Shown here piece by piece: positions 8,077 through 31,940 of a stretch of DNA of 53,938 bases (the stretch's first letter is position 1; every line of letters starts with the position of its first letter). The translations under genes and the position numbers were made by a program. Below the pieces are notes generated by a model, which was given only the letters and a program-made list of their open reading frames with translations, did no database searches and was not told the origin of the DNA. This DNA is from a virus (lineage: Duplodnaviria; Caudoviricetes): positions 1 to 53,938 of the IMG/VR virus record IMGVR_UViG_3300048583_000290, one strand, 5' to 3'.

Positions 8077-8208
8077 TCCTTGTCTCAGCGCCCCGCTTCG
8101 CGCCTCGCGCCCGCCCCTCGCTACCGCCGCCGCGCCGGTTAGAACATGTTTTAAGCGCGTCTAGGGCCTTCCCCGCTACCTACCCCCAGCCGCCCGCTTC
8201 CGGCGCTC

Positions 8209-9473: not shown

Positions 9474-9977
9474 TCACTTTCCTGCTTTGATTACCGCCTC
9501 AACGAATGGGAATATGGAGAAGCAGTCGGGCGGCAACTGCTCTCCATTTTCAATCCGCTCCCTCGCCCATGATTTGAGGGTCATCGGATGAACTGTTGTC
9601 TTGCCTTCGCACTCATAGCCCAAACCGGCCAGCTTCTCTGCGGCCTCGGTTGCGCGTTCGCGGTCTGTTCCGGCAAAGATGAGTTTCAGCTCTGTGCGGA
9701 CGATGCCGCCAAAGCCGTTAGCATCGAGGAACGCAACGGCCCCTTCATTGTCAACGATTGATGCTGTGCACTGATTGCGCAGGTCGATGGTCGTGCCGTC
9801 ATCGAGCTTGATTTTGGTGACGCCGACCTCATCCATAATCTCCGGGATGCGCTCGCGGGTCAGCGTTTTCAGGGCGTTAGCCGCCGCCTCTGCTTCTTCT
9901 TGAAGCATTGTCAGCTTGGATTTCAGCGCAGACGCCTCATCGACCGCCGTGCGCAGACGGTCTTTCAAGTCACTCAT
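9474..9977 (-). CDS. Conserved replication-module protein
   Basis: N-terminal coiled coil, IPEIMDE.G and VHPMTLKSW motifs; lies upstream of the SSB. Confidence 0.7.
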   Translation of the reverse strand: MSDLKDRLRTAVDEASALKSKLTMLQEEAEAAANALKTLTRERIPEIMDEVGVTKIKLDDGTTIDLRNQCTASIVDNEGAVAFLDANGFGGIVRTELKLIFAGTDRERATEAAEKLAGLGYECEGKTTVHPMTLKSWARERIENGEQLPPDCFSIFPFVEAVIKAGK

Positions 9978-10649: not shown

Positions 10650-10937
10650 TCAATCTGCGGTGCGCGCTGTCACATAGAATTTCTCGGATGATGGCTCGCG
10701 CCAGTTGGCTTCGAGTTCACCGGGGCGAAGCGTCTGGCGCATCATCTTGTCGCAGACGTGCTGGCAGTAATCGCGGTCAAGATACTCCCAGCAGAAGTGC
10801 ACCAGGCCAAATGGATGCGTCCACTGGATGCGCCAAAGCTGGTCGCCGACCTTGGTTTTCGGGGTGCCACGCTTCGCACGCGTGTCGCGGGTCTGCGTCC
10901 AGGGGATGACGGCAAAGGTGTTTGGTTGCTGTGTCAT
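10650..10937 (-). CDS. Hypothetical protein
   Basis: TAATG coupling. Confidence 0.6.
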   Translation of the reverse strand: MTQQPNTFAVIPWTQTRDTRAKRGTPKTKVGDQLWRIQWTHPFGLVHFCWEYLDRDYCQHVCDKMMRQTLRPGELEANWREPSSEKFYVTARTAD

Positions 10938-11257
10938 TATCGTTGCCACTCCGCTGCGGCCACAAGCAGGCCAGCTTTGAATTGTTCCGCTGCGCGCTTT
11001 TCGGCCTCTGCGGCCAGCGCCAAGTCGAGGTGTTGGTGGACATACGCCTTCAGTGCCTCTTCATCGCCAACCTTGAGAGCCGCGATGCAGTCGGTCACGC
11101 ATTCGGGGATTTGCCATCCGCCGCTCATCCGCTGCGTGCGCTTCGGCAGTGCTTTCCATGCTTGGTAAGCTGCCGCGCAGAGCTTGATGTTGATGGCGTA
11201 GCACCGGCTGTAAACAGTCGATGCGCCGGGCCACGTTGGGAGATTATCGTTTGCCAT
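10937..11257 (-). CDS. Hypothetical protein
   Basis: Coupled ORF. Confidence 0.6.
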   Translation of the reverse strand: MANDNLPTWPGASTVYSRCYAINIKLCAAAYQAWKALPKRTQRMSGGWQIPECVTDCIAALKVGDEEALKAYVHQHLDLALAAEAEKRAAEQFKAGLLVAAAEWQR

Positions 11258-11258
11258 T

Positions 11259-11435
11259 TCAGTCAACCCACCGACCGTTGTAGAGGATGCCGACGATGTC
11301 CGGGTTCGCGCGGCAATACGCTTTGGCCGCCGAATAGATGGACGGGCCGCTGATGGTCGTCTTGATGTTGTTCGAGTGCTTGTCGTCCAAAGCAATCTCG
11401 ACTTTGAAATCGTGAACTTTCTGGGGGATAGGCAT
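11259..11435 (-). CDS. Hypothetical 58-aa early protein (MPIPQKVHDF...; not in ORF track)
   Basis: GAAGGA RBS after promoter and hairpin; open frame to TGA at 11259-11261. Confidence 0.65.
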   Translation of the reverse strand: MPIPQKVHDFKVEIALDDKHSNNIKTTISGPSIYSAAKAYCRANPDIVGILYNGRWVD

Positions 11436-11941: not shown

Positions 11942-12153
11942 TGGTCTGCAATCCTCGTTGGCGGAACCTTGCAGGTATGCGCTTTGAACTGCGGCAATCG
12001 AACAGCCACTTCAAAATGGCGGCCAGCGACCATCATCCCTGGGGCCGTCAAGTCGCGGCGCGGTCGCCAGACGAAAAAGAAGTGATACCAGTCAGGGCCG
12101 CGCAACACGTCGCGCCCGATGAAGGCCATGAACAGAGAGGTCTGAATACCCAT
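11938..12153 (-). CDS. Hypothetical protein
   Basis: TGATG coupling to the ligase; N-terminal QTSLF. Confidence 0.55.
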   Translation of the reverse strand: MGIQTSLFMAFIGRDVLRGPDWYHFFFVWRPRRDLTAPGMMVAGRHFEVAVRLPQFKAHTCKVPPTRIADQ

Positions 12154-13088
12154 CACATATCCTCGCGTTGCCGGAATGACTGCCACGTTGGGAAGCGCGG
12201 CTTGTCCTTGATGCCTTTGGGGAAGAATTTGGCTTTGTGGAGCTTCGCTTTGAACTCCTCTTGGTTGGCAAAGAAATAGCGGCGTTGGTCGTGCGACAGG
12301 CAACCGGCGCCAACCCGCACTTGCTGGCCTGCCTCGAACAGCACCTTGTCACCGTCTTTGACGACACCGACTGTGCGGCCAATCATCGCGCCAATCATCC
12401 CGTTGGCAACTTTGTTTTCCTGGTGGCTCGAACGGAATGTGCGGCCCAGCTCATTGATTTGGGCTTCATTCTGGTTCTCCTCACCTTCGATGATTTCATC
12501 CACGAGGAATTCAAAATCAACAAACCGCTTGATGCGCCATTTGATGAGCTGTTTGCCAGCCCGCCCTTCCTTGTGCGCCGCTGCCGGGCCGCAGATGACG
12601 GTGCCTTCAAAGCCGGCAAGCAAATTCTCGGTGTCGAACGCCTCAAGCTCTTCCAAGCTGTAAATGACCCGACACGGCATAATCCGCAGGTGAACTTCAA
12701 AGTTTGGATATTCCTCGCTGACTTGGCGCACCCTGTCTGCCAGCTGCAGCAAACGATGCTCATAGCCCGCATTTCGGTTGTCATCGGTGACATAGTCGAA
12801 CAGCCACCAGACGATGTGCGGCTCACCGTCGATTGTCCCGGTCGCTGAACTGGTCATCCGGCACAAATCGGGGTGGTTGTTCGGCCCCGCCGCAAATTCG
12901 CCATCGAAGCCGATGAGCGCCGGGTGACTGAACCGGGCCGTCAAATAGCGGTTCTTGAACGGCTTGAGCGAACGCGCTGTCAGGTTGCCGTTGAGGTTCA
13001 GCGCCCGCACACCATCGACTTTTGGCTGGGCGATAAGTGGGAAGCGCAACCTGTTCGGCTGCCAGTCGTCAAGTAGGTGCGGCTTCAT
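12153..13088 (-). CDS. lig: ATP-dependent DNA ligase
   Basis: Motif I PKVDGVR, FDGE, LFD, FEG, WRIKRF, C-terminal PRFP. Confidence 0.92.
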   Translation of the reverse strand: MKPHLLDDWQPNRLRFPLIAQPKVDGVRALNLNGNLTARSLKPFKNRYLTARFSHPALIGFDGEFAAGPNNHPDLCRMTSSATGTIDGEPHIVWWLFDYVTDDNRNAGYEHRLLQLADRVRQVSEEYPNFEVHLRIMPCRVIYSLEELEAFDTENLLAGFEGTVICGPAAAHKEGRAGKQLIKWRIKRFVDFEFLVDEIIEGEENQNEAQINELGRTFRSSHQENKVANGMIGAMIGRTVGVVKDGDKVLFEAGQQVRVGAGCLSHDQRRYFFANQEEFKAKLHKAKFFPKGIKDKPRFPTWQSFRQREDM

Positions 13089-14793: not shown

Positions 14794-15282
14794 TCACCAT
14801 TGCCCGAATTGCGGCACAGCGCGTCCACCCCAGGTCGGCAATCGCTTATCTGTTGACCAGCGGCGCGCCAAATATGCGCGATAGGCTTCATGGACTGGCA
14901 GATGCGTGAAGTCCAGCTTATGCTCGCCGTTGCGCGCTGAGTTCTGGAAAGACGTTGGGCGGTCGCCGCAAATCGAGTTGAGAACTTCATCATTGATGGT
15001 CGAAAGCATATCTTCAATCGGTCCAGCGCAGGCGTGGACGCGGCCATATCTGACGAAATAGATGTCGCACAAAGCCATACCGTGCCGCCACAGCCAAGCA
15101 GCATTGGCCCGCGTTGCACAAGCCCAAATCGCACACGGATGGTTCTGGTGCGTCGGCTTGTATGGCCCGTTGACCGCCATACTGAGCAGCTGCGCCGTCT
15201 CCAGAATCATCTTGATGACGCGCTTGTCATCGAGCGCCTGTGCCGATGCCACTGGGCAATCTGATGTCGCAAAGATGTTCAT
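14794..15282 (-). CDS. Pyrimidine-dimer DNA glycosylase / endonuclease V family protein
   Basis: MNIF...A..LDDKRV.KMILE.AQLLS...THQNHPC..W signature. Confidence 0.8.
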   Translation of the reverse strand: MNIFATSDCPVASAQALDDKRVIKMILETAQLLSMAVNGPYKPTHQNHPCAIWACATRANAAWLWRHGMALCDIYFVRYGRVHACAGPIEDMLSTINDEVLNSICGDRPTSFQNSARNGEHKLDFTHLPVHEAYRAYLARRWSTDKRLPTWGGRAVPQFGQW

Positions 15283-18341: not shown

Positions 18342-18701
18342 CTAAGCCCCTCGCGGCCCCTTCCGGGGCGATACCCGCGTCCCGGCGCTCGCGGCGCTTA
18401 GGGGGTGTTCTAGGCGGCCATCAGCGAGCTTGTCGAGCAATTCTTCAACCAGCACGTCCAAATCGGTGAGCCGCAGCAGCGAGCCTTTGGCCCTCAACTT
18501 TGCGGCTTCCATCAGCGCGGCGGCGAAAAGGTGGGCGCTCTTGTCTGCGTCCTCGATTTCATCTTCAAGCGCAGACACAGGGTCTTCAAAAAATTCTATG
18601 AACTCTCCCATAACGGTGCCGCCGCGCGCGTTGTTGACGACAATGGCCATCAACTGGCCGTTCCAGTAAATTTCATCGCCGATGAGTTGGGGCGCGGCCA
18701 T
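18342..18701 (-). CDS. Hypothetical protein
   Basis: TGATG coupling. Confidence 0.6.
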   Translation of the reverse strand: MAAPQLIGDEIYWNGQLMAIVVNNARGGTVMGEFIEFFEDPVSALEDEIEDADKSAHLFAAALMEAAKLRAKGSLLRLTDLDVLVEELLDKLADGRLEHPLSAASAGTRVSPRKGPRGA

Positions 18702-19702
18702 CAGTAAACAACCGCCGTGCGTCCGCGCAAATCGCCCATTTCTTCACTGCCCCTTTCATGAGCGTTAATCCAACGACGCCACATGACGTTTCCTTCAAAC
18801 TCGACACGCTCCCAATTGAGGGCGTTCGGTTGGCGCCGCAGGTAGCGGTAATGACCGCGCACATCATGGAGCCGTTTGCGCGCAGCATCCCTACAAGCAT
18901 TAAAAACAAATCGCTCATAGCTTGCGACTTTTTTGGGCACGCGCATCGTGATGTATTCAGGCACAGCTGCGCGGCGCGTGACGCCGTGAACAATCTTGCG
19001 ACCTGTCACATCGGACTGGATGCGCTCTGCCGGGCCGTTGAGCAGCGCCAAAAAGCTGATGACGTGGCGGGCGATGCCAGACGTTTCCTTGATGGTCTGC
19101 TGGAGCAACTTCACTTCGCGGTCATCGTGCGAGTTGACTGTTGAAATGCACATAATCTTGTTGCGCATCGGCTTCATGAACTTGGCAGTCTCTCGCTGCG
19201 TTGGCGCGTGTGTATAGCCCCAGCAACTGGCGTCATATTCCGGGCTGCCAATCGGGTGGCGACCGTCTTTGACGCGATACATCGCCTCGTCAACAACAAC
19301 GTCATTGTCGCCCGTTGATATCAGATATTTGAGAGGCCAAAGCAGGACTTTGCCGCTGCCGCGCACCGGGCCGATGCTGTCGATGACCTGAAATTGAAAC
19401 AGGTCGTCTGCCACCTTGGTGATGAGGGCACCGGATGTATCGACTTCATCGCCTTGGTGGCGCGACCCGCCGAATGACTCGCGGTATGAACCCATATTGT
19501 ATTCAATGAATATTTCGTCATACGGAAGGTGCGCCATTTTGCGCAACTCGTTCATCCGCTCCGGCAAGTTGGTGCGCAGAGCCGCCAGAGCCGCAAGCCC
19601 GCTGTCCCGGATGACAAATTTCTTGGCGCGGCTGACTGCCGGCGCTACATTCATCTTGAATGCGTATGACGCTGGGTGCGATGCAAGGTCAGCCAAAAGC
19701 AT
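18701..19702 (-). CDS. Phage protein of unknown function
   Basis: AGGAG RBS; C-terminal RLHDVRGHYR...WINAHERG motif. Confidence 0.75.
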   Translation of the reverse strand: MLLADLASHPASYAFKMNVAPAVSRAKKFVIRDSGLAALAALRTNLPERMNELRKMAHLPYDEIFIEYNMGSYRESFGGSRHQGDEVDTSGALITKVADDLFQFQVIDSIGPVRGSGKVLLWPLKYLISTGDNDVVVDEAMYRVKDGRHPIGSPEYDASCWGYTHAPTQRETAKFMKPMRNKIMCISTVNSHDDREVKLLQQTIKETSGIARHVISFLALLNGPAERIQSDVTGRKIVHGVTRRAAVPEYITMRVPKKVASYERFVFNACRDAARKRLHDVRGHYRYLRRQPNALNWERVEFEGNVMWRRWINAHERGSEEMGDLRGRTAVVY

Positions 19703-19831
19703 TGTGCGCTCCTGCAAAAAGGTGCCCGGCTTTATGAGCCGCCAGCCGGGCATGGCGTCGGTTGTGCAGCAACAACTTCAACGGCAGCAGGGAAGGATTC
19801 ACCACTCTCTGCCTCAGTCGCTGCTGCGCGC

Positions 19832-20853: not shown

Positions 20854-22299
20854 CTAAAACACGCCGTCTATCACTTGCAGCGCTGTGCCTTCCTTGGCTT
20901 GCAGTGCGGCGGCGATACGTTCATCAATCGTGTCAACAGCCACCAAGTCAATGTAAATGACGTTCGATTTGGTTCCAATTCGATGGCACCTGTCCTCGCT
21001 CTGAAGCCGCTGTTCCAGATTGAAGGTGTTGCTGAAATAGATGGCTGTCTGCGCGGCTGTGAGCGTCAACCCGACACCTGCGGTCGATGGATTGCCGATG
21101 AAGAAGCGAGCCTTGCCAGACTGAAAATCGTCAATCGCCGTTTCACGGTCGCCTTTGCTGGTGCCGCCGTGGTATTGAACGAATGGCTCTTTCATTTCGG
21201 TCAGCAGTTCAGCAATCGCGGCCAGCTCTGCGCGGAACCCGGCCCAGATGATGACTTGCCCTTCAACGTCTTCAAGCACTTCCTTGAGCGCTGCCATTCG
21301 AGCACCACCATCTTCCAAAGCGACCGGCTCACCGTCTTTCAAAATATAGCCGGATGCCGCCTGCCGCAGCTTTGTGATGACGGTCAGTGCCGTGAAGACA
21401 TCAATGTCGGTATCGGAATGCTGGAAGCGCAGCGTGCTGGCCAATGCGTCATACGCGGCTCGGTGCGACGGCCCCAGTTCAAAATACTGCGTCTTGTAAA
21501 TTTTTGCCGGCAGGTCGAGACAATCCTCTTTGCGAACGCGATACATGTATGGCCGCAGCCTCTCGTGAAGGCGGTCGAGATTGCGATACATCGGATTGCC
21601 GTTCCGGTCACGCTGGATGACGAGCGGCTCACCGCGTTTGCCGCGCGCAATGGCTTGATACAACTGGCTGCTCTTGTCGAGCAGAACGGCATATTCTGAG
21701 ACAAACGCCCGGAACGAGTTGGTTCCAAGCAGGCCGTGCCGCAGGAATTGAAACTGCGAGAACAAATCCTGCGGCCCCTGCGTCAACAACGTCCCGCTCG
21801 CAATTCGCCGTGAAACAGAAAGCGGTGCCAAATCGCTGATTTTCTGCGTGCGGACAGCATCCTTGTTCTTGATGCGCTGGCTTTCATCGATGACCAGCAT
21901 GCACTTGTGCGTGCGCAGAAACCGCTCGGCAATCTCGCGGCCCTTCACCGTCGAAATGGCATCGACGTTCATCGTGAGGATTGCCAACCGCTCCCCCGGC
22001 TTCATAAGGGCTTCAATCCGGCCCAGCAAAATTTTTCCGGCACCGGATGAATAAGCCGCGCCCGCCCAAGGGATGCTCAAGTGCGTCGGTGCCTCGCGGC
22101 GTATCCAGTTGGTGTGGACGCCTTTTGGAGCAATGACCAGCAATCCGCGAACGCCACGGTGCAGAAATTGACGCTCCGCATCGTTGAGAAGCATCCACGT
22201 TTTGCCAGTGCCTTGCTCGCAGGCCAGCGCATAAAAGTCTGGCATTGAGTCCAGCAATTCTTGTGCCGTGAGCTGGTGCTCCATCGGGGCCGTTTTCAT
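20854..22299 (-). CDS. SNF2-family helicase
   Basis: EQGTGKT, VIDES, SGT, GVGLTL, QSEDRCHRIG. Confidence 0.92.
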   Translation of the reverse strand: MKTAPMEHQLTAQELLDSMPDFYALACEQGTGKTWMLLNDAERQFLHRGVRGLLVIAPKGVHTNWIRREAPTHLSIPWAGAAYSSGAGKILLGRIEALMKPGERLAILTMNVDAISTVKGREIAERFLRTHKCMLVIDESQRIKNKDAVRTQKISDLAPLSVSRRIASGTLLTQGPQDLFSQFQFLRHGLLGTNSFRAFVSEYAVLLDKSSQLYQAIARGKRGEPLVIQRDRNGNPMYRNLDRLHERLRPYMYRVRKEDCLDLPAKIYKTQYFELGPSHRAAYDALASTLRFQHSDTDIDVFTALTVITKLRQAASGYILKDGEPVALEDGGARMAALKEVLEDVEGQVIIWAGFRAELAAIAELLTEMKEPFVQYHGGTSKGDRETAIDDFQSGKARFFIGNPSTAGVGLTLTAAQTAIYFSNTFNLEQRLQSEDRCHRIGTKSNVIYIDLVAVDTIDERIAAALQAKEGTALQVIDGVF

Positions 22300-22514
22300 G
22301 ATATTGAGTCCAATTCCGTGTTGAGACCACCGTTTGTTGGCAACTCAGCCATGCCAACGAGGACAGCCGCGCGATTGCCTAGCGGAGTGCGCAGTGACTT
22401 GTTTTCAGCTTCCGTTCTGCCATAATGGGTGAACGTCTGCGACCGCACAACATCGCAGATGAATGCTTCAAGCGCCGATATGCGAGCTTGCAATTGCGCG
22501 ACTGTTTCGCTCAT
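22296..22514 (-). CDS. Hypothetical protein
   Basis: ATGA-coupled on both sides. Confidence 0.6.
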   Translation of the reverse strand: MSETVAQLQARISALEAFICDVVRSQTFTHYGRTEAENKSLRTPLGNRAAVLVGMAELPTNGGLNTELDSIS

Positions 22515-22915
22515 TGGATGCCTTCGCTCTTCAAAAATGCCTCAACGGTGTCGAATTGCTCGATTTGGTCAAGGTGGTGAAAGACAGTCTCGCGCGGCCC
22601 GATGATTGTCAAACGCTTTCCCAAACCTAGCGCGATGCCAAATTCGATGTGCCGCCCGCCGCGACCGTTGCTTCTGGGCTCTTCCATCAGCGAAATCATC
22701 CAGTCGCAAGCCAGAACGTCATCAACGTCCTCCATTGCAAATCGGCGACGTTCGGAATCAGCCGCTTGGTCTGAAGTGCCAGTGGGAATGACGTGGTCAT
22801 CACCCGGCTTCACCCATCGGCTCGTGATGCTATGGCCGCGCATTTGAAGCAGTTTGGCGAGCGCGTGGCATTCATGCCGACGACTGAAGCGTGCTGCAAT
22901 ATAAATTGCGCTCAT
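22511..22915 (-). CDS. Nucleoside 2-deoxyribosyltransferase-like (NDT/DNPH1) N-glycosidase
   Basis: IYIAARF...DVDDVLACD...GGRHIEFGIALGLGK. Confidence 0.75.
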   Translation of the reverse strand: MSAIYIAARFSRRHECHALAKLLQMRGHSITSRWVKPGDDHVIPTGTSDQAADSERRRFAMEDVDDVLACDWMISLMEEPRSNGRGGRHIEFGIALGLGKRLTIIGPRETVFHHLDQIEQFDTVEAFLKSEGIQ

Positions 22916-23259
22916 TGCTTGTCGGCCCGTTCCTGCGCGGCGGCATCACTGTAGCCCAGCGAGGCATAACGCTTGCTGAGCTTGGCGATGTTGTGCGCGA
23001 TGGTCTGCTCGCGGGTGATGCCGAGCCGCTGGCGCAACTGCTCCATATAGAATTCCATATCGCCCAATTCTTCGATGACGTTCTCGATGTCGAGCGGCTT
23101 GTTGTAGATGACATGCTTTTTGATGCCATCGAGCAATTCGCCAGCCTCACCGCTGATGCCCATAATCGCGTGGATGAGGTCAACCGACCCAACAGACAGC
23201 GTTGCCCGGATGTCTTCCGGCGGCTTGACAAGTGCTTCAACCAAGTCAGCGTGCTTCAT
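22912..23259 (-). CDS. MazG-like NTP pyrophosphohydrolase
   Basis: GEAGELLD..KK...EELGD..FY...NIAKLSKRY. Confidence 0.88.
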   Translation of the reverse strand: MKHADLVEALVKPPEDIRATLSVGSVDLIHAIMGISGEAGELLDGIKKHVIYNKPLDIENVIEELGDMEFYMEQLRQRLGITREQTIAHNIAKLSKRYASLGYSDAAAQERADKQ

Positions 23260-23650
23260 TGATAATTCCCCATATCTTTTGCCAATTGGCGTGGTAAGGT
23301 GTAAACTGAGTGTTCGTCCAGTGAACTGCCTCTGCGACAAATTTGCCCGGAACGAATGAAATGATACCAGCACTGTCGCGTATCAACAGCCAGCTTTTGG
23401 TGCCCATTGATGCCGCTTTGATGTGCCAGTTTATTTGGTCGATACGCAAATCCTTTCCCAAAACAGGTGTCGTGTCCCTCACTGGTCGCTGCGGCGCTTT
23501 CAACTCAACCCAGCAATCGCAACCAGAAAGGCTCTTTGCCAGAACGTCCGGCATCCCCGGCCCCAGACCATTTTCAACGCGCTGCAGCCACATGTCAGTC
23601 GGCGCTTGCCGCTTCATCGTGTCCCAGAGCTTTTGTTCTTGCTGGCGCAT
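23246..23650 (-). CDS. VRR-NUC / PD-(D/E)xK nuclease (resolvase-like)
   Basis: RVEN...GMPDV...WVELK...QINW. Confidence 0.8.
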   Translation of the reverse strand: MRQQEQKLWDTMKRQAPTDMWLQRVENGLGPGMPDVLAKSLSGCDCWVELKAPQRPVRDTTPVLGKDLRIDQINWHIKAASMGTKSWLLIRDSAGIISFVPGKFVAEAVHWTNTQFTPYHANWQKIWGIINEAR

Positions 23651-26427
23651 TATTTGAACATCTCATCGTTGGTCAAGCACTTGACTTTTTCAACGCTGAA
23701 CATACCGAATTGGGCGAGCCATTTGCCGCGAACCAATAGCCAGTCCTCACCCGGCTTGGCGCGGTCAGCAATCTTGACCCCGGTGCTGAGCCAATCGCGG
23801 CGATTGATGCGCAGAAGGGCTGGCTTGCTGACAGAGTCATCAACGCAGTGAACGTCGGCAAAGAGCGTCTGGCCTTTCATCACGTTGCCGCGCCGATTGA
23901 TGCGGACAGCTTCATTCTCATCCCGCCTATCGACACGTTCGACCCGGCAAATGACGACCGCACTTTCCATATCTGCCAGTTCGCCAAATTCTTTGATGCG
24001 GCCCCTTATATTGTATTCGGCAGGGTTGTCATACATATGCTGCCAACGGGTGTGCGCGGGCCGCAGGTCGGCAAACTTGATTGTTGCGTTGGCAATCTGC
24101 TCCAGTTGTTTGGCGGTCAGCGTTCCGGTGTCGCGTGCCTCGCGCAGTTTCGCGGCTTTGACGTCACCGACGCCGACCATGTTCTTGAAGCCGCCAATAA
24201 TCTTGGTGTCGGTCGCAACCCAATCATCGCTGCTCAACTCCAAGCTGAACGGGATAACTTCAATGCCTTCCGCTGCCAGCTCACGCAACGTCTCGATGGT
24301 CTGCTCATCGTCTTTTGCGGCCCGCAGCAGAGCCGCAGCAAACTTGAGTGGGTGGTGAGCTTTGAGCCACATCGTCCAGTATGCGATGATTGCATAGCTG
24401 ACCGTGTGCGATTTGTTCATCCCCCACGCACCGAAGGTCACCAAAGACTTCCACAGGGCGGCGGCTGATTGCTCTTCAATTCCATTCTCTGCGGCACCGG
24501 CCATGAATGCCTTGCCCTTGGTGTTGAAGTATTCCGGGCCTTTGCTGCCGCTCATTGCCTTGCGAATTTCAGAAACTTCCGCCCAGCCCATCTTTCCGAT
24601 TTCAAAGCAGATGCGCATCACCTGCTCTTGATAGATGACGACGCCCTGCGTTTCGCCCAAATACTCTTTCATCGATGGATGAACATACACCACAGGCTCT
24701 TTGCCGTTGAGGCGCTGCATGTAAGTATTGGTCGCACCGCCAGCCATCGGCCCCGGTCGCGCCAAAGCGGTCACGTGGTCGATTTGACTAAACCTGTCAT
24801 AGTGCATCTGGGCGCTGACGCGGCGCTGCGATTTGCCTTCAAACTGGAAGATGCCGGCAAATCGCTGGACATTGAGGATGTCAAAGGCCGCAACTTCATC
24901 GAGCGGCAACCGATACAGCTCTTCAGCGGTCACGACCCCGGCATCTTCGATGACGCCAAGAGTGCGCAATCCGAGAACGTCAATCTTGAGCAAGTCCAGA
25001 TGCCCGGACATTTCCTTGTCAACGTGAGCAACGCCATCACGCACGGTGCAATATTGGGTTATCAAAGTTTCAGACACCAGCAAGCCAGCTGCGTGAACCG
25101 ATGTGTGGCTTGGATGCCCTTCAAGGTCGGCCATCACCCTCGCCTCTGGGAACAGCTTTGCGAATTTGCGGCCATTTTCTGTTTCATTCAGAGTGTCCTC
25201 AAGCCCCTTGCCATAGCGTGAGTCGCCCGATGAATGCTCAATCAGAACGTCTGCGACAGCATAGGTATCTTTGGCCGGGATGCCCATCTTTTTGCCAACG
25301 TGGTTGAGCACCGACCGACTTTGAAGGCGGCTGATGTTGCCGAGGCGCGCAACATTGTCTTTGCCATACTTTTCTGCCATATAGTCAAAAACCATATAGC
25401 GATGTTGGTCGCTGAAGTCGATGTCAATATCAGGCAAATCGCTGCGCGTCACGTCGATGAAGCGTTCAAACAGGAGATTGTGAACGAGCGGGTCAACTTC
25501 CGTTATGCGAGCCAGATAGCAGACAAGGCTGCCGGCAGACGAGCCGCGCGCTGGGCCAACAATCATCCGCTCTTTGGCCCAGCGCACCATATCGCCGACG
25601 ACCAAAAAGTAGCTTTCATAAGCCTTCTGGGCAATCACATCCATTTCGCGTTGAAGGCGAGCTTCATACGCTGGCGTCCATTCCTTGATATGCCCTGCTT
25701 CTAGCCGATATGCCTGACCGACACGGACTTCATCCCAAAGGTTGCCCGGCACCGATATGATTGGGGCTTTGGCGAGGCGCTGGCCGCGCAATCGTTCGCC
25801 AATTTCCTGCGTATGGCCTACAGCAAAGTCCCACTGCTTGTCAGTCAAAAACCAATAGGCGGAACGCAATTCATCCATGTTGAGAACGTGCTGCGGCGTC
25901 ATCCGTTTGTTGTCATCCCACGCCAGATATTTGAACTTATCCGCTGCCGTTGGATAGTCATTCGTTGGGGCCAGAACGAGCGGCTTGCCTGTTGATTCAG
26001 AAAGGCCGATTGCGTGGCGTGCCATCAACCGCGAGTGAATGTCAATATCAACGTAATCAAAGTGGGCCGGGTCGGTTAGGGCCGCGCCCGCGAAAACGAT
26101 AGTCCCGGCGCGCGACGTTAGCCGCTCCGGGCCGAAAGGAACCGCCGACGATAGGAGATAGCCCGCCCGCGTATCGGTCGCTATAGCCCACGCTAGGGGC
26201 TTCCGTTCGTCATTTTCGTTAGGGAAGCTAAAAGTGAAACCAAAACCCGGTTCGATGCCGACCTTGAGGCAAGCGATTTCATGAGGAACGTGCCCCCAAG
26301 TGCCATCATCGTCAACTAGGGCAACGGCGGTGTATCCGGCATCCTTAGCTGCGCTCGCAAGCGCGTGTGGTGTGCCAAATGCTTTGCGGAAACTATATCC
26401 AGAACGGCCACGCAATAACGGTATCAA
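23650..26427 (-). CDS. dnaE: DNA polymerase III alpha-like (family C), degenerate PHP domain
   Basis: GPARGSSAGSLVCY, LLFERF, catalytic PDIDID, HAAG, LLKIDVLGL, MNKSH..SY. Confidence 0.95.
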   Translation of the reverse strand: MIPLLRGRSGYSFRKAFGTPHALASAAKDAGYTAVALVDDDGTWGHVPHEIACLKVGIEPGFGFTFSFPNENDERKPLAWAIATDTRAGYLLSSAVPFGPERLTSRAGTIVFAGAALTDPAHFDYVDIDIHSRLMARHAIGLSESTGKPLVLAPTNDYPTAADKFKYLAWDDNKRMTPQHVLNMDELRSAYWFLTDKQWDFAVGHTQEIGERLRGQRLAKAPIISVPGNLWDEVRVGQAYRLEAGHIKEWTPAYEARLQREMDVIAQKAYESYFLVVGDMVRWAKERMIVGPARGSSAGSLVCYLARITEVDPLVHNLLFERFIDVTRSDLPDIDIDFSDQHRYMVFDYMAEKYGKDNVARLGNISRLQSRSVLNHVGKKMGIPAKDTYAVADVLIEHSSGDSRYGKGLEDTLNETENGRKFAKLFPEARVMADLEGHPSHTSVHAAGLLVSETLITQYCTVRDGVAHVDKEMSGHLDLLKIDVLGLRTLGVIEDAGVVTAEELYRLPLDEVAAFDILNVQRFAGIFQFEGKSQRRVSAQMHYDRFSQIDHVTALARPGPMAGGATNTYMQRLNGKEPVVYVHPSMKEYLGETQGVVIYQEQVMRICFEIGKMGWAEVSEIRKAMSGSKGPEYFNTKGKAFMAGAAENGIEEQSAAALWKSLVTFGAWGMNKSHTVSYAIIAYWTMWLKAHHPLKFAAALLRAAKDDEQTIETLRELAAEGIEVIPFSLELSSDDWVATDTKIIGGFKNMVGVGDVKAAKLREARDTGTLTAKQLEQIANATIKFADLRPAHTRWQHMYDNPAEYNIRGRIKEFGELADMESAVVICRVERVDRRDENEAVRINRRGNVMKGQTLFADVHCVDDSVSKPALLRINRRDWLSTGVKIADRAKPGEDWLLVRGKWLAQFGMFSVEKVKCLTNDEMFK

Positions 26428-26948
26428 ATTAACACCCCTGCCATCTTGCAAACTTCGACCAGCGCCTCAACGTCATCCAATGCGCGGTGAGTCTGGTTGA
26501 GCGGCTTCCCAGTATAATGCTCATACAGAGTCACCAGCTTTGGTCGAAAGCCCCAGAGCGGCAAATGCTCTTGAACAGTGCAGAGCCGCCGCTCTGGCCA
26601 AGGCACCGTAACGCCGATGCGCGCAGCATCAAGCTCGACCATCATCGTGTCGAACGGCAGATTGTGGGCAATCGCTTGGCCGCAGCCTAACATATATGCC
26701 TCAATCTGCGGCCAGACTTCTTCAAAGCTAGGTTTGCCTTCGAGCATTTCGTTGGTGATGCCGGTGATTTTGGTAATTTCCTCGGTCACCATCATGCCCG
26801 GATTAACGAGCAGAGTCAAGCTATCTTTCACAATGCCTTCTGCATCGCACCGGACGGCGGCAAACTCGATGATGCGCGGCTGGACAGCATCCTTGGCATT
26901 CGGATGCTTTGTCAGCCCGGTTGTTTCGGTATCAAAAACCAAGTTCAT
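26424..26948 (-). CDS. dnaQ: DEDDh 3'-5' exonuclease (DnaQ/epsilon-like)
   Basis: FDTETTG, AHNLPFD, HRALDD. Confidence 0.92.
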   Translation of the reverse strand: MNLVFDTETTGLTKHPNAKDAVQPRIIEFAAVRCDAEGIVKDSLTLLVNPGMMVTEEITKITGITNEMLEGKPSFEEVWPQIEAYMLGCGQAIAHNLPFDTMMVELDAARIGVTVPWPERRLCTVQEHLPLWGFRPKLVTLYEHYTGKPLNQTHRALDDVEALVEVCKMAGVLI

Positions 26949-27700
26949 CAGGAGTTTTCCAGAATAAGGCTTTCCAGCATTGCGGCATAGACGCCGATGT
27001 CGTGAGCGCTGTCGGCATGATTCAGGCCGCCAGTAGCGAGCCGAGACATCTTGACGGCAATCATCAGGAACACACCGAATTGATTGCTGTGAAGCTGCGC
27101 TGGCTCGATGCCGTGCGGAAACAACGCTGCCATGAGCGGCCCGAACGCCTTGTAGTTGCCACCATAAGTCTTGTTGCGCTCGCGGAACACCGCTGCCATA
27201 TCGTCCAGCAGGGTGTCAGGCGTTCGCACTCGTTTTGGCTTCGATGGCGTGACAAAATGCTCTGGGCCGTGAATTGCGAGCACTTCAGCTTTGTAACCAG
27301 CCGCGCGATACGCTTCAACAACTTCTGCCCGGTCATCGTAGCACATAATGATGTCAGAGTGCGGAACGCCGTTCATCGAAAGGTGCTTGCCGAGCACGGC
27401 CACTTTGAACTCGGAGGTTTTGCGGAAATCGTCATTTTTCCGCATCAACAGCTCATCGCTGATGCCCCAAAGCCCTTTCTGCTGCAGCCACGTTTCTGTG
27501 CTGGAGCGATATTTGACTGTGCGGCCAGTCAACCAGATGATGGCCGCGCCAGACACCCGCGCAGCGCTCAGAACGTCGGAGTGATGATAATCGTCATCGA
27601 TGTGCTTGGAGTGGTATGCGTCATACCCTTCAGCCAGAAGCGGACGCCGATGCATGTCGTCAGCCACGCAATTGTCGATGTCAAAGACATAATATCGCAA
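26948..27700 (-). CDS. HAD phosphatase fused to an all-alpha pyrophosphatase-like (DUF6378-like) domain
   Basis: FDIDNC, LTGR, LMR..DD.R...FK, YDDR; C-terminal RNKTYG...KMSR...DSAHDIGVYAAM. Confidence 0.75.
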   Translation of the reverse strand: MRYYVFDIDNCVADDMHRRPLLAEGYDAYHSKHIDDDYHHSDVLSAARVSGAAIIWLTGRTVKYRSSTETWLQQKGLWGISDELLMRKNDDFRKTSEFKVAVLGKHLSMNGVPHSDIIMCYDDRAEVVEAYRAAGYKAEVLAIHGPEHFVTPSKPKRVRTPDTLLDDMAAVFRERNKTYGGNYKAFGPLMAALFPHGIEPAQLHSNQFGVFLMIAVKMSRLATGGLNHADSAHDIGVYAAMLESLILENS

Positions 27701-27705
27701 TGGAC

Positions 27706-28512
27706 TTACTCCGCACGCAGAAGGTCGATGGCCTTGGCAATGTCCCAGCCATCGCCGCTGCCGGTGGTGATGCCGATGCGATTGGCGACCGCTTCCAGCA
27801 TCTTGATGGCCTTTTCATTCTTCGGTTCAAAGAAGATTTCGGCCCACGGCCAGACATCGATGACAGCCTGCCGCATTTGCGCGATGATGTCGGCATATTC
27901 GCCCTGCGTCCGCAATGACGACCGCGCAACGACGAGGTCAGCAAAGGCGCGCAGATTGTATTTGGCGACCAAATTGCAGTGGATGTTCATCGGCAGGATG
28001 CCGCGCGCATCTTCGCGGCTCGCCCCATCAGCGACCAATTCTGCATATTCGGCGATGGCGCCGGTGGCCTGGTCTGCAAACAGCTCGAAATGCGATTGCT
28101 CTTTCATCGGGTTATAGACGCTCGATGAAGAAACGTCAACGACGCGCTGCGACTGCATCGCATAGCTGCCGGTGCGTGTTCGCGTTATTTGCTGGGCGCA
28201 GGCGCGGCTCACCTTGCGGATGAGAAATGTCACGTCAACAAATTCCCAGCTGCTGCGGATGGTCGCAGCCATCAGCGCCAGTTCATCGAGCTTCTTCTGC
28301 TCCGGCCAGTGCGTGATTGAAAGCAAACCGCCCATATCCATTTCGAGCCGCGTCTGCTTGGTGAAGATGAGAAGGTCTGCGGCGTGCCATTTCTGGTCGA
28401 TGCGCCCGGCACCTGTGAAGTCCATCAGATAGACTTCAACATCGGTTTTGCGCTCAAGAGCCGCCAGCGCCGGGTCGTTGTTGCCGTCAATCAGGCTGAG
28501 TTGCGTATTCAC
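27706..28512 (-). CDS. thyX: Divergent flavin-dependent thymidylate synthase-like protein
   Basis: SWEF..TF.I..VSR..QQITRTR..SYAMQSQR, EDARGILP, NLRAF; canonical RHR and SxRY motifs are altered. Confidence 0.8.
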   Translation of the reverse strand: MNTQLSLIDGNNDPALAALERKTDVEVYLMDFTGAGRIDQKWHAADLLIFTKQTRLEMDMGGLLSITHWPEQKKLDELALMAATIRSSWEFVDVTFLIRKVSRACAQQITRTRTGSYAMQSQRVVDVSSSSVYNPMKEQSHFELFADQATGAIAEYAELVADGASREDARGILPMNIHCNLVAKYNLRAFADLVVARSSLRTQGEYADIIAQMRQAVIDVWPWAEIFFEPKNEKAIKMLEAVANRIGITTGSGDGWDIAKAIDLLRAE

Positions 28513-29429
28513 GATGACTTAATCCTTCCATCATAGCTGTCGGCGGCCATCAACCGTTTGATAACCGTTATGTCTTGGACAACGTCATCCAGCAGAAGAT
28601 TGCGCCAAGTCGCAAACCTGCCGAGGCTATAAATGCCACGCTCTTCTGACAGCCGCCGCACGACGCTGCGACGGACTTGTTCATCAATAGGCGATATTTT
28701 GCCATATCTCTGAGTTGTCGATTCAAGTTCGTGGATTTCACCGACCTCAAGCGCAAAGGCCATCAGCATTTCGGACAGCCAATGGCCGTTCTCATCCTTG
28801 GTCGGCGCATCACCGATGAACTCGGCAATCAGCAAGTTGCCGGTGATTGATGCCCGATACATGTTGTGCGTTGGCGTCGGAAAATAGACTGTCTGATAGA
28901 CATCAGCATCGCGCATTTCGATACGCCAACGCAGCACGCAAATTTTCGAGCGGCTGAATGTTTCGTTGATTGGCTCGCCCAAAGCCCGCGCGGCGACTGG
29001 CATCGGGGCAGTGCTGACATGCGGCACCGGATGATAGATGCCGATTTTCGCAAAGTCGAAATCTTCACCCCAGCAAATGCGTTGTCCGACCTGCTCCAGC
29101 AACCGCTCATAGAAGTTTTCTGGAGCGATAAAGCGGTGCGCCGTTTCGATGTTCCAGATGCTGCGGTCGAGCAGCGTGCCAGTCACCTTGCGGCTGTAAA
29201 GGTTGGCGAGCCGCACGCTTGGCTGCTCAAACTTGCCATTATGCAAAATCCCCTTCCGCACTGTTACGCGACGGAAAGGGATGGCGGTGGCGTGGCTGAC
29301 TGAATCACTTCTGAAGCGAAGCAGCGCCTTATGATTTTGGATTGGAGATTTGGAAGTCTCCGTGATTGTAGCTCGCGGCCAAGCGTGCGCCGCAATAAGG
29401 CCCGCAAGCCCTGCTCCGATGATAATCAT
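28509..29429 (-). CDS. FAD-dependent oxidoreductase, UDP-galactopyranose-mutase-like
   Basis: IIGAGLAGL Rossmann motif; C-terminal LGRFATWR.LLLDDVV resembling the UGM GRxxxYxY..D motif. Confidence 0.7.
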   Translation of the reverse strand: MIIIGAGLAGLIAAHAWPRATITETSKSPIQNHKALLRFRSDSVSHATAIPFRRVTVRKGILHNGKFEQPSVRLANLYSRKVTGTLLDRSIWNIETAHRFIAPENFYERLLEQVGQRICWGEDFDFAKIGIYHPVPHVSTAPMPVAARALGEPINETFSRSKICVLRWRIEMRDADVYQTVYFPTPTHNMYRASITGNLLIAEFIGDAPTKDENGHWLSEMLMAFALEVGEIHELESTTQRYGKISPIDEQVRRSVVRRLSEERGIYSLGRFATWRNLLLDDVVQDITVIKRLMAADSYDGRIKSS

Positions 29430-29477
29430 TCGTCCCCCTATGGAATGAGGGCGCGACCGGAGCCGCGCCCATTTGGC

Positions 29478-30239
29478 TCAAGCAAACTGCTCGGCCAATT
29501 CCCACAGGCCACGGTTGAAATCGACAGTGCGATTGATTTGCGTGATGGGCTTGCTGGTGATGGAACGCTGCGTCCCAGTCGTGCCGTTCAGCCCGCCGAC
29601 AAAGCAGTTTTCCTGGACGACGTTGAACGTCCGCCAAAGGTCGCTGCCTTCATCGGCCATTCGTCGCGGCTTGAGCAATTCTGCCGTGTCATAGGATGAA
29701 ATGTCGCCCCACCGCAGGATGCTGGCTGCGCGGGCAAATTCCGTCTGCTTGGCAGGCGACAATTCCTTGGCGCTCCAATCTTCGATGGTTTTCTGAACCT
29801 GCGGCATCCGCTCTGACAGAAGGCCGGCAAAGTTGAGGGCTTCATCGATGACGTTGCCGGAATGGCGACCGGCGTAGCGCATGATGTTGTCGCCGATGAA
29901 CAGGCCATTGGCGCACACAAAGCGATAGATGCCGCCCATCATCGTCAGCTTGCGCCGACCGTTGTGCGAGTTGATGATGATAATCTGCGGCACTTCGTTG
30001 CCGACCTTGGCGACCTGCTCGATGTGGTCTTGGTGCCGCAGCACGACCATGTGCGTCACAAAACGCGGGTCACGCCGGGTGGGGTTGTCCTGCTTGGCTT
30101 GGACGGGGTGATACCCGACATCAGCCATACGCCGAACGACATCGATGGTGCGAACCTGCTTGTAAAGCTCGCTCATCTTGTGCGTGTCGGAAAACATCGA
30201 CGGGGCGCAAAGCTCCATCGAACGCTCGGTCATCATCAT
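29478..30239 (-). CDS. DUF932/DUF945-family protein
   Basis: HMVVLR, IIINSHNG, RFVCANGL, LWRTFNVVQEN, NRGLW. Confidence 0.88.
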   Translation of the reverse strand: MMMTERSMELCAPSMFSDTHKMSELYKQVRTIDVVRRMADVGYHPVQAKQDNPTRRDPRFVTHMVVLRHQDHIEQVAKVGNEVPQIIIINSHNGRRKLTMMGGIYRFVCANGLFIGDNIMRYAGRHSGNVIDEALNFAGLLSERMPQVQKTIEDWSAKELSPAKQTEFARAASILRWGDISSYDTAELLKPRRMADEGSDLWRTFNVVQENCFVGGLNGTTGTQRSITSKPITQINRTVDFNRGLWELAEQFA

Positions 30240-30360: not shown

Positions 30361-30933
30361 TTAGGCTTCGACCAAATCGGTCTGGTCGGCGCCAGCGTCA
30401 TCGCCGGTGCCGGTTTCATCGCCGGTGCCGGTGTCATCGGCGGGCGCGGCCGGTTCTGCCGGGGTTGCCGGCACGCCGAGCTTCGGTGCGGTCACGATGG
30501 CATCGCCGGGCAAAATCTTCCAGACATAGCCCCATTCTTCATCGGTGCCATTGGCCTTCAGTTCCTGGCGGAACTTGATGTGGTGCTTCATGTCGATGCC
30601 GAGGTGACGGAAGGCATCGGCGACCGACTTGTAAACAACGCCATTGACTTCAACGCGGCTGCGTTCCTTGCGCTTGGCGGCCACTTCCGGGTTCTTCCAG
30701 CTTTCGCTGACGCCAGCCGAACGCGGATTGGTGATGCCGGCCTCGATGCGCGCGGCGACAGCAACGGCTTCGGCAGCGAGCGTTTCGAGCAGTGTGGTGA
30801 CCTTGGCGACAGCAGTCGGCAGGTCGGCAAACTTCTTGAGCTTGCGCTTGGAATTGACGTTGTAGAACGCGAGCAGTTCCTCGATGGACTTTTCGCCGAT
30901 GTTCTCGGCAGTGACTGTGGCAACTTCCGACAT
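30361..30933 (-). CDS. Putative DNA-binding protein, paralog of 2836-3252
   Basis: GGAG RBS; shared central domain; acidic tail. Confidence 0.75.
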   Translation of the reverse strand: MSEVATVTAENIGEKSIEELLAFYNVNSKRKLKKFADLPTAVAKVTTLLETLAAEAVAVAARIEAGITNPRSAGVSESWKNPEVAAKRKERSRVEVNGVVYKSVADAFRHLGIDMKHHIKFRQELKANGTDEEWGYVWKILPGDAIVTAPKLGVPATPAEPAAPADDTGTGDETGTGDDAGADQTDLVEA

Positions 30934-31117
30934 TTTGTTCTCCGTGCTTGGGCCGCCCATCGGCCTCTTCAGCCCGGTTACTATCGCCTGTTTCGCTGCA
31001 GAAGAAAAGCCCTTTTTTTGGGGTAATCAAAAATAGTTTGTTCTGCCATGAGCCGCACCCTTATATAATGGTCAGCCTCGCGCGCCCGCGATAGCCTAGA
31101 GCGACGGCCCTAGCGCA

Positions 31118-31130: not shown

Positions 31131-31313
31131 GACAAGCGATACCCGGCGGCATGTAATAAACGGCTTATCGGATGAAATCGGGCGGCTTATCATTCGTTTT
31201 TAATGGTCTAAGCACTAAAACCGCTTCCCGTCGCATTCCTTTTCGGCTAGAGAGGGAAGGCGCTAGGGGAGCATGCAAATCCTTTACCGCGTTCACATGT
31301 GAAAGGAAACACA

Positions 31314-31940
31314 ATGATTCGTTCTCTGTTCAGTATCGGTGCGCTCGTCGCACTGGCGATGGCCGCGCCCGCGTCCGCCGGTGTCTTCACCGTCACCGCC
31401 GGCACCATTGCCCCCATCGCCGGTTCCGGCAATGACTTCACCAGCGACCTGGCCGGTCTGGGCCTCGGTGTGAAGGAACTCCAGAACTCGACCGTCAGCT
31501 ACACCGGCGGTGCCTACAAGGTCGAACTGCTCGGCTATGAAAACGGCTTCACCGACAGCTTCTCGGTCGATGGCGGCGTGACGCAGCTCGGCACTTCTTG
31601 GTCGGGCTTTGCCAATCTGTTCGCATCGCCGCTGCTGCTCGGTGTGTCGAACGCATCGCCGTCGAAGTGGCTGTTCAAGTCGGCACAGGCTGGTCTCGGT
31701 GTCGTCGGCACCAATGCCTTCTCGCTGTTCGGCCCTGCCGGCACGATGACCGGCGATGTCTTCCAGTCGCGCACGCTGTATGTCGGCTTCAATGACGGCG
31801 GCGGCGATGGCGACCACGACGATGGCATCCTGCGCATTTCGGCGGTGCCGGAACCGGCATCGTGGATGACGATGATTGCGGGCTTCGGTCTGGTCGGCTT
31901 CGGGATGCGCCGTCGCACCGCCAAGACCGTCGCAGCCTAA
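31314..31940 (+). CDS. PEP-CTERM (PEPxxW type) sorting-domain surface protein
   Basis: Signal peptide ending APASA; C-terminal VPEPASWMTMIAGFGLVGFGMRRR; AAGGA RBS. Confidence 0.92.
   Translation: MIRSLFSIGALVALAMAAPASAGVFTVTAGTIAPIAGSGNDFTSDLAGLGLGVKELQNSTVSYTGGAYKVELLGYENGFTDSFSVDGGVTQLGTSWSGFANLFASPLLLGVSNASPSKWLFKSAQAGLGVVGTNAFSLFGPAGTMTGDVFQSRTLYVGFNDGGGDGDHDDGILRISAVPEPASWMTMIAGFGLVGFGMRRRTAKTVAA

Follow-up and report, generated by a model that had tools for sequence, protein, structure and literature searches.

The locus

The window analysed here spans the whole of a complete viral record (IMG/VR IMGVR_UViG_3300048583_000290; 53,938 bp), with direct terminal repeats and a CheckV completeness of 100%. 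A complete record with terminal repeats rules out a prophage or contaminating host DNA, and the virion genes (terminase, portal, major head protein, tape measure and J-like tail protein) are siphovirus-like. Our subject is a set of three consecutive genes on the minus strand. They encode an FAD-type flavoprotein of 306 amino acids (aa) (28509-29429), a 268-aa non-canonical member of the ThyX thymidylate synthase family, here called ThyX* (27706-28512), and a HAD phosphatase of the PNKP type fused to a DUF6378 domain (26948-27700).

This trio stands in an uninterrupted series of minus-strand genes that occupies positions 20854-30239. An earlier annotation by a model, referred to below as the original prediction, had described part of the series (22511-29429) as a candidate pathway for DNA base modification. 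Its gene list and coordinates were correct, each open reading frame (ORF) lying where it had been placed, and the operon reaches beyond those limits, from at least a DUF932 gene (29478-30239) to a SNF2-family helicase gene (20854-22299). The tight coupling that it described also holds: overlaps of 1-4 nt join flavoprotein to ThyX*, HAD to DnaQ, DnaE to a small nuclease-like protein, MazG to an NDT-like protein, the NDT-like protein to a 72-aa ORF, and that ORF to SNF2. The DnaQ and DnaE genes overlap by 28 nt and the nuclease and MazG genes by 14 nt, while a gap of 5 nt separates ThyX* from HAD. Co-transcription, which had been claimed as well, is what such a layout would suggest. Terminator-like sites occur at chance level (16, against 14.0 +/- 3.5 in shuffled sequences).

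The ThyX variant and its flavoprotein partner

ThyX* matches the Thy1 family (PF02511) with 99 bits against a gathering cut-off of 24.8, and it has the ThyX fold, with extra N- and C-terminal helices compared with the canonical enzymes of Thermotoga maritima (TM0449) and Mycobacterium tuberculosis. With the NCBIfam equivalog model TIGR02170 it scores 84.8 bits, under the cut-off of 87.9. We compared its residues by HMMER alignment to M. tuberculosis ThyX and in an alignment of 15 sequences, made up of 11 variants and 4 canonical viral ThyX proteins (from Staphylococcus, Clostridium and Bacillus phages and from Acidianus ARV1).

The motifs TIRSSWEF, RTR and SQRV, to which the original prediction had drawn attention, are present, and the alignments confirm that the folate-stacking His, the His of RHR and the Tyr of SxRY are lost, both in this protein and throughout its family, with 120 of 120 close homologues among them. 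Thus the canonical [G/Q]H..xLEH reads TI..SWEF, RHR reads RTR and SQRY reads SQRV. The positions of T. maritima His53, His59, His79 and Tyr91 are occupied by Ile, Phe, Thr and Val, with Ile85 at the folate-stacking His53 position and Val124 at the catalytic Tyr91 position. The RHRx7S signature, which becomes RTRx7S in ThyX*, keeps its RHR in all four canonical viral proteins; by contrast, neither RHR nor a Tyr at the final position occurs in any of the 120 closest database homologues of ThyX*. The same pattern is seen in Pbunavirus JG024 and F8, in Carpasina and Bas100, and in Ralstonia, Rhizobium and Vibrio phage proteins.

The rest of the active site is kept. None of the 15 aligned sequences departs from R111, R113, R123, R170, R197, Q203 or E205, and the set of Arg, Asn, Gln and Glu residues that binds dUMP and flavin is retained. 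The dUMP-site residues presumably correspond to R78, R80, S88, R90, R147 and R174 of the T. maritima enzyme. At the Ser88 position (S121), invariance is limited to the clade to which the window's protein belongs (37/37); the other five aligned variants have Thr there. Judged from these alignments, ThyX* is a conserved variant family in which the folate-side and finishing residues are gone, whereas the nucleotide and flavin side is kept. The functions of the missing residues are described for canonical enzymes: T. maritima His53 stacks on the folate pterin and the reduced flavin and hydrogen-bonds Tyr91, and the cited account terms Tyr91 and Ser88 strictly conserved and critical (PMC11940539). 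In the Y91A mutant, consumption of the flavin carbinolamine is reported to be more than 100-fold slower, and the same source reports that formaldehyde loads directly onto flavin N5 without folate (PMC8316439).

The gene upstream encodes a protein of a virus-only family (phrog_4828). None of its 3040 database homologues carries a Pfam domain, it falls in Atlas clusters that are 96-100% viral, and a GxGxxG motif and E24 are invariant. The original prediction had called it UGM-like, after the UDP-galactopyranose mutases (UGMs), and the predicted fold supports this: UGMs are the top Foldseek matches (E 4.6e-11) of an AlphaFold2 (AF2) model with a pLDDT of 89.1, and protoporphyrinogen and amine oxidases score nearly as high. 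Sequence comparison gives a different picture. There was no Pfam match at E <= 0.01, PF03275 and PF13450 included, no NCBIfam match, and only a chance match in a sequence search of the PDB (E 0.56). An hhalign comparison of the family with Escherichia coli Glf aligned only the GxGxxG Rossmann stretch, over 20 columns and with 5% probability. The matched UGMs are 363-510 aa long, so that the flavoprotein, at 306 aa, is 60-200 residues shorter. On the strength of the model, "UGM-like" would be a fair description at the level of the fold only; membership of the UGM family is not borne out. The protein has many invariant Arg and Lys residues. We considered its charge as a hint of DNA binding and dropped it, the family's median pI of 8.1 being uninformative. 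Complex prediction with two copies of ThyX* and the flavoprotein gave a score of 0.00 against a mark of 0.32, which speaks neither for nor against binding.

In the third gene, the HAD domain is secure (PF25109, 48.4 bits against a cut-off of 27.6, E 1.4e-12) and has the N-terminal FDIDN at residues 6-10 as its DxD motif. Homologues are found in JG024, Bas100, Carpasina, PY059YO380 and RHph_TM30. The C-terminal domain is DUF6378 (PF19905, E 1.3e-6), which has 1550 relatives, both stand-alone and fused, and the all-alpha pyrophosphatase label that it had been given finds no support at the sequence level. Single-sequence and profile searches of the PDB with it returned nothing below E 0.39, and hhalign gave a 0.1% probability of relationship to the window's own MazG. 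The "polynucleotide kinase" of Pbunavirus, whose C-terminus by eye resembles DUF6378, was considered as an analogue of the 5-hydroxymethyldeoxyuridine (5-hmdU) DNA kinase and rejected: Pfam recognises only a HAD phosphatase in the JG024, Carpasina and Bas100 proteins.

Gene co-occurrence, a check proposed with the original prediction, ties the first two genes together. Of 80 IMG/VR loci recovered by way of the flavoprotein, all but one (79) encode ThyX* downstream of it and on its strand, and in the lone exception the downstream sequence ends after about 580 bp; these loci are the closest relatives, and much of the pairing reflects shared descent. Their usual order is DUF932, flavoprotein, ThyX, HAD, DnaQ, DnaE, with a DUF932 homologue in most of the 80. 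A tblastn search of phage records matched ThyX in 412 and the flavoprotein in 362, with near-identical counts for ThyX and flavoprotein by host word (Pseudomonas, 291 and 292; Escherichia, 27 and 27; Serratia, 9 and 9; Xanthomonas, 6 and 6). Bacillus (17) and Clostridium (14) are among the ThyX matches listed and are not among the ten host words listed for the flavoprotein, beside which nine others went unnamed. Unlike canonical ThyX, ThyX* is always paired with the flavoprotein. Phages with other backbones have the pair too: a Vibrio and a Ralstonia phage of 40 kb each, and Rhizobium phage RHph_TM30 (207 kb), whose copy is close to genes for a dUTPase, a ribonucleotide reductase and a HAD protein. 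Phage MyoSmar is a further carrier.

Six records were compared more closely, four of them whole (JG024, Bas100, VA-RY-3 and PY059YO380) and two partial (Carpasina and RHph_TM30). Among the window's proteins, only the flavoprotein and ThyX* match in all six. DnaE and DnaQ match in five and HAD in a different five; the RHph_TM30 genome lacks DnaE. No member of the ThyA family (PF00303) was found in the five genomes searched, whereas each of five phage records has exactly one Thy1 match, as does the window.

The wider arrangement is shared as well. Pbunavirus (JG024 gp49-gp68; F8; 14-1), Wifcevirus Bas100 and Carpasinavirus have the same order of flavoprotein, ThyX*, HAD, DnaQ, DnaE, small nuclease-like protein and SNF2, and the Pbunavirus-type module and the window have ligase, MazG and Pam3 gp33/34-like genes in common. 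The two differ in that identities are 31-49%, the window's virion genes are siphovirus-like, and the window has MazG and an NDT-like gene between nuclease and SNF2. The Dda helicase and short-chain dehydrogenase of some relatives were not found among the window's ORFs. We conclude that the locus is a siphovirus copy of a replication and nucleotide-metabolism operon found in Pbunavirus, Wifcevirus and Carpasinavirus as well as in uncultured phages by the thousand, and that, as far as gene content and order can tell, flavoprotein, ThyX* and HAD-DUF6378 travel as a unit.

Several relatives have additional genes inside the module. The Vibrio phage VA-RY-3 has a sulfotransferase-like gene after ThyX* (7339-8094), Bas100 a short-chain dehydrogenase with weak epimerase/RmlD-like matches (10710-11393), and Carpasina a gene annotated as a FabG-like reductase (7188-7883). 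These lineage-specific extras could be tailors of a sugar adduct.

Thymidine adducts in relatives and a proposed role for the trio

Pbunavirus DNA was considered plain until 2025, when a preprint by Yee et al. (bioRxiv 10.1101/2025.03.31.646159; PMC12191111) described modified DNA in phages F8 and 14-1. [quoted passage not shown] LC-MS (mass spectrometry coupled to liquid chromatography) revealed one novel nucleoside in each phage, of 362 Da in F8 and 390 Da in 14-1, and these were read as sugar-alcohol and pentose derivatives of thymidine. In both phages the T:A ratio is below 1 and about a quarter of the thymidines are replaced, in a TG context. The authors emphasise that the known hypermodification genes are absent from Pbunavirus, and the main text of the preprint names no biosynthetic genes. 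The original prediction had required virion DNA to hold more than dA, dC, dG and dT, and in these two relatives it does.

The flavoprotein (43% identity to that of the window), ThyX* and HAD are present in F8, as gp065, gp059 and gp057, and in 14-1. They are present too in Bas100, a member of the genus Wifcevirus, for whose resistance to restriction no mechanism is known. In the literature searched, supplements such as PMC12191111's Extended Data aside, no study turned up that attributes the Pbunavirus adducts to particular genes or treats the ThyX-flavoprotein pair. In the window itself, 34% of T, counting both strands, stands in a TG context.

We asked how the module differs between F8 and 14-1, whose adducts differ in mass. 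Most module proteins are 92-99.5% identical, HAD-DUF6378 is 80% identical, and identity falls to 78-82% in three small ORFs next to ThyX; within F8 25772-28433, the N-terminal half of gp066 does not align with 14-1. HAD and its small neighbours, the most diverged, might determine the type of adduct. We offer this as a lead only, for the changes are scattered, save for a low-complexity linker.

The reading that we favour, with a confidence that stops somewhat short of even, is that the flavoprotein, ThyX* and HAD-DUF6378 make or start a C5-substituted thymidine-type base, instead of or besides dTMP, and would be the likely genetic basis of the Pbunavirus adducts. In a more specific form, which we put forward tentatively, the trio would be the missing biosynthetic genes of the Pbunavirus-type, sugar-derived thymidine hypermodification, and ThyX* would be the first ThyX-fold enzyme to place a non-methyl group on pyrimidine C5; it would do so by carbon transfer from flavin N5, with the methylene trapped by a sugar hydroxyl or with an aldose standing in for the folate methylene. 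Gene content, synteny, motif changes, folds, co-occurrence and the modified DNA of relatives are what the analysis shows. That the genes cause the adducts, the chemistry by which they would do so, and modification of the window phage's own DNA are all things that we infer.

ThyX chemistry proceeds through a carbon adduct at flavin N5; the carbon is passed to C5 of the pyrimidine, and the resulting exocyclic methylene is then reduced. PolB, the UMP/dUMP C5-methylase of polyoxin biosynthesis, is a ThyX homologue that still methylates. A ThyX* that keeps the carbon transfer without the folate-stacking His and the acid Tyr would be a reasonable source of a nucleotide of the type C5-CH2-X. We suppose that ThyX* still binds dUMP and FAD, and that N5 of its reduced flavin still carries a carbon onto uracil C5. 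With the folate-side pocket rebuilt, the last steps would differ: the exocyclic methylene might be trapped by water or a sugar hydroxyl rather than reduced or, alternatively, an aldose might act as carbon donor in place of folate-CH2. The flavoprotein could supply or reshape the sugar, or supply reduced flavin, and the HAD domain could strip phosphate from an intermediate. DnaE and DnaQ, MazG and the NDT-like protein would be ordinary replication and pool-sanitising neighbours. Trapping of exocyclic methylenes by nucleophiles is described in related systems (PMC8989533).

The adduct masses can be accommodated by simple arithmetic. The value of 362 equals 5-hmdU (258) plus a tetritol (122) minus water, and equally deoxyuridine with C1 of an aldopentose reductively joined at C5; 390 equals 5-hmdU plus a pentose (150) minus water, and equally deoxyuridine C-linked to a hexose ring. 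Both readings of the masses imply a carbon on C5 that bears a sugar-derived group, and all of the proposed routes give the formulae of 362 and 390 Da.

This scheme would have precedents, since thymidylate-synthase homologues start known pyrimidine hypermodifications (PMC13326640, PMC8989533). ThyA-family starters, among them hydroxymethylases for dUMP and dCMP and the enzymes of RB69, DLP3 and RL38J1 that make 5-hydroxy-dCMP, follow the same logic, in which a synthase homologue and sugar-nucleotide enzymes yield sugar-decorated pyrimidines; Rhizobium phage RL38J1 combines a synthase homologue with a true UGM and glycosyltransferases (PMC13326640). The 5-hmdU pathway (5-HMUDK with aGPT-Pplase; phages M6, ViI, SP10 and PhiW-14), as described in PMC8989533, resembles the situation in the relatives in that T is partly replaced by a C5-CH2-X adduct that is finished on DNA. 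It differs in that its adducts derive from amino acids, whereas those of Pbunavirus derive from sugars, and in that the relatives and the window lack a ThyA-type hydroxymethylase; nor was a P-loop kinase or aGPT-Pplase recognised among the window's 41 scanned ORFs. Hypermodification that begins with a homologue of thymidylate synthase is known, and what would be new here is the ThyX fold and the new flavoprotein partner.

A number of points weigh against this reading. The link of either gene to the adducts is a putative one, and the window's proteins are 31-44% identical to their Pbunavirus counterparts. The TG context and the substitution of a quarter of T imply that at least one step takes place on DNA, yet no candidate transferase or kinase was recognised: in agreement with the original prediction, a nucleotide kinase, glycosyltransferase, methyltransferase, aGPT-Pplase or other DNA transferase was found in none of the 41 scanned ORFs, several small ORFs lying outside the scan, and the kinase family PF02223 was absent from all five genomes. 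In F8 and 14-1, canonical T still makes up about three quarters of the total (PMC12191111). The changes at the His53 and Tyr91 positions are not absolute hallmarks, in that ARV1 ThyX, which keeps RHR, has a Tyr at the first of them and a Phe at the second, and a Tyr (QGEY, Y206) conserved in all 11 aligned variants could compensate for the one lost. As F8 and 14-1 lack a further thymidylate synthase, ThyX* may do no more than produce dTMP, and the surroundings of the pair in RHph_TM30 are a classical setting for dTMP supply. The core idea of the original prediction, installation of a non-methyl C5 group through the ThyX fold, is in our view plausible and unproven. Relatives with the pair do have sugar-derived thymidine adducts, the kind of DNA that it had predicted, and its interpretation as a whole is partly supported.

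The alternative that survives best, and that we consider quite possible, is ordinary nucleotide supply. Here ThyX* would be a divergent, genuine dTMP synthase, and the flavoprotein would assist it, for instance as an oxidoreductase of flavin or NAD(P)H that stands in for the His-dependent half-reaction now missing. Sanitation of nucleotide pools would fall to HAD, MazG and the NDT-like protein, the adducts would arise from other genes, and the window's DNA may be plain. The strong PF02511 match and the fold fit this account, as do the complete retention of dUMP- and flavin-binding residues, the position of ThyX* as sole thymidylate-synthase homologue in genomes with mostly canonical T, the dUTPase and ribonucleotide reductase of RHph_TM30, and the failure to find a transferase or kinase in the scanned ORFs. 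It fits less well with the loss of residues that are described as strictly conserved and critical, one of them with a more than 100-fold effect when mutated (PMC11940539, PMC8316439), or with the TIGR02170 score under the equivalog cut-off. It also leaves unexplained why a flavoprotein of UGM fold, and not a common reductase, should be tied to ThyX in 79 of 80 loci, and it leaves no candidate gene for the Pbunavirus adducts or for the restriction resistance of Wifcevirus.

A second alternative, which we regard as improbable, is that the pair, or the flavoprotein alone, acts on DNA after replication, its target being T, or else a base that precedes it, in a TG context, with ThyX* either an enzyme acting on the polymer or a source of dTMP only. 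The TG specificity and the modification of about a quarter of T in F8 (PMC12191111) would be explained directly, a third of the window's T stands in that context, and known thymidine hypermodifications are described as completed on DNA (PMC8989533); the invariant Arg and Lys residues of the flavoprotein point the same way. The nucleotide-binding residues of ThyX*, however, fit a site for a mononucleotide, the flavoprotein family is not notably basic, and no DNA-binding domain was recognised. To our knowledge there is also no precedent for flavin chemistry on an unactivated thymine methyl group.

The full pool-replacement scheme of the original prediction, in which MazG, HAD and NDT purge dTTP and a dedicated family-C polymerase incorporates a fully substituted pyrimidine triphosphate, is highly improbable in spite of having every named enzyme class in one operon: relatives keep about 75% canonical T in their DNA, which EcoRI, HindIII, XbaI, DraI and BsaI still cut in F8 (PMC12191111), and modify it in a TG context, which argues for a step on DNA and against replacement of the pool; RHph_TM30 has the pair and no DnaE; PF02223 is missing from the five genomes; and the placing of MazG and NDT is not a conserved one, nuclease being followed directly by SNF2 in all five loci that extend that far.

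Our favoured reading, that the trio makes or starts the modified base, matters in several ways. The adducts decide the sensitivity of phage DNA to restriction enzymes and END nucleases, and the pair is carried by Pseudomonas phages used in therapy and in patients. The locus offers two or three concrete candidate genes, conserved in no fewer than 362 phages with sequenced genomes and in contigs from metagenomes by the thousand. If the reading is true, the restriction resistance of Wifcevirus could also be explained, and the system would be widespread, with more than 3000 viral homologues of the flavoprotein, including those of therapy phages and of the window's uncultured siphovirus. If ThyX* does the chemistry, it would represent a new reaction class for the ThyX fold, and modification would be predictable from phage sequence alone; such sequence-based screening is relevant for choosing, cloning, sequencing and engineering these phages.

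Other genes of the operon and the window

The remaining operon genes are all on the minus strand. Downstream of HAD lie a DnaQ-like 3'-5' exonuclease (26424-26948; RNase_T PF00929, E 4.5e-26; phrog_192) and a DnaE-type, family-C DNA polymerase (23650-26451; PF07733, 214 bits; PF17657, 118 bits), which is 46-49% identical to the polymerases of PB1-like phages and has a weak PHP domain (18.9 bits against a cut-off of 26.4). A small PD-(D/E)xK-like protein of 134 aa follows (23246-23650; phrog_2165, E 3.1e-21; no Pfam match). It shows a PD...ELK motif by eye, and its relatives are annotated as "DNA helicase". Next is a MazG-like pyrophosphatase (22912-23259; PF03819, 25 bits against a cut-off of 22; phrog_229, E 1.2e-36), whose start we took as the later ATG at 23259 of an ORF that is open up to 23373. 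In Pbunavirus, MazG is located elsewhere in the genome, and neither MazG nor the NDT-like protein is a fixed part of the module.

The NDT/DNPH1-like protein (22511-22915) scores 22.5 bits with PF05014, under the cut-off of 28.8, although many of its 283 homologues do carry that domain. Matches in the PDB to NDT and MilB are weak, the Glu of its HIEFG aligning with that of MilB HVEIG at E 0.6. The family is tightly conserved, at 66-96% identity over the 120 homologues listed, and one member lies in a Sphingomonas genome record, which is a weak hint of host range. A 72-aa ORF, translationally coupled on both sides (22296-22514; no PHROG match), leads to the SNF2-family helicase (PF00176, PF00271; phrog_62). 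At the other end of the operon, the DUF932 protein (PF06067, E 5.2e-24) is the usual upstream neighbour of the flavoprotein.

Elsewhere on the minus strand, Pam3 gp34-like and gp33-like genes (8638-9465 and 9474-9977; PF23977 and PF23984) are conserved in JG024, Bas100, Carpasina and PY059YO380 and belong to the shared module. A PDB sequence search with the two proteins gave no matches; they are possible candidates for a step at the DNA level. A 199-aa protein with a weak match to the I-TevI DNA-binding domain (30361-30960, minus strand) also has homologues in PY059YO380, Bas100 and JG024.

Some further genes of the window lie outside these themes. A 350-aa protein (18701-19753, minus strand) matches nothing in Pfam or PHROG; the Atlas clusters closest to it are AcrVA2-like (score 0.97), and the top cluster has PF26125 on 48% of its members, which makes an anti-CRISPR function possible, as a lead only. 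On the opposite strand within the minus-strand block, the gene at 31299-31940 (plus strand) encodes a protein whose C-terminus bears the PEP-CTERM sorting motif (PF07589, E 6e-7), an unusual phage cargo that may hint at the biology of the host envelope. A pyrimidine-dimer DNA glycosylase domain of the DenV type (PF03013, E 2.2e-5) is encoded at 14794-15282 (minus strand). Finally, an ATP-dependent DNA ligase (12153-13088, minus strand; phrog_114) and a primase pair (5564-8076, minus strand; DUF5906 and RepB_primase) round out a self-contained replication set.

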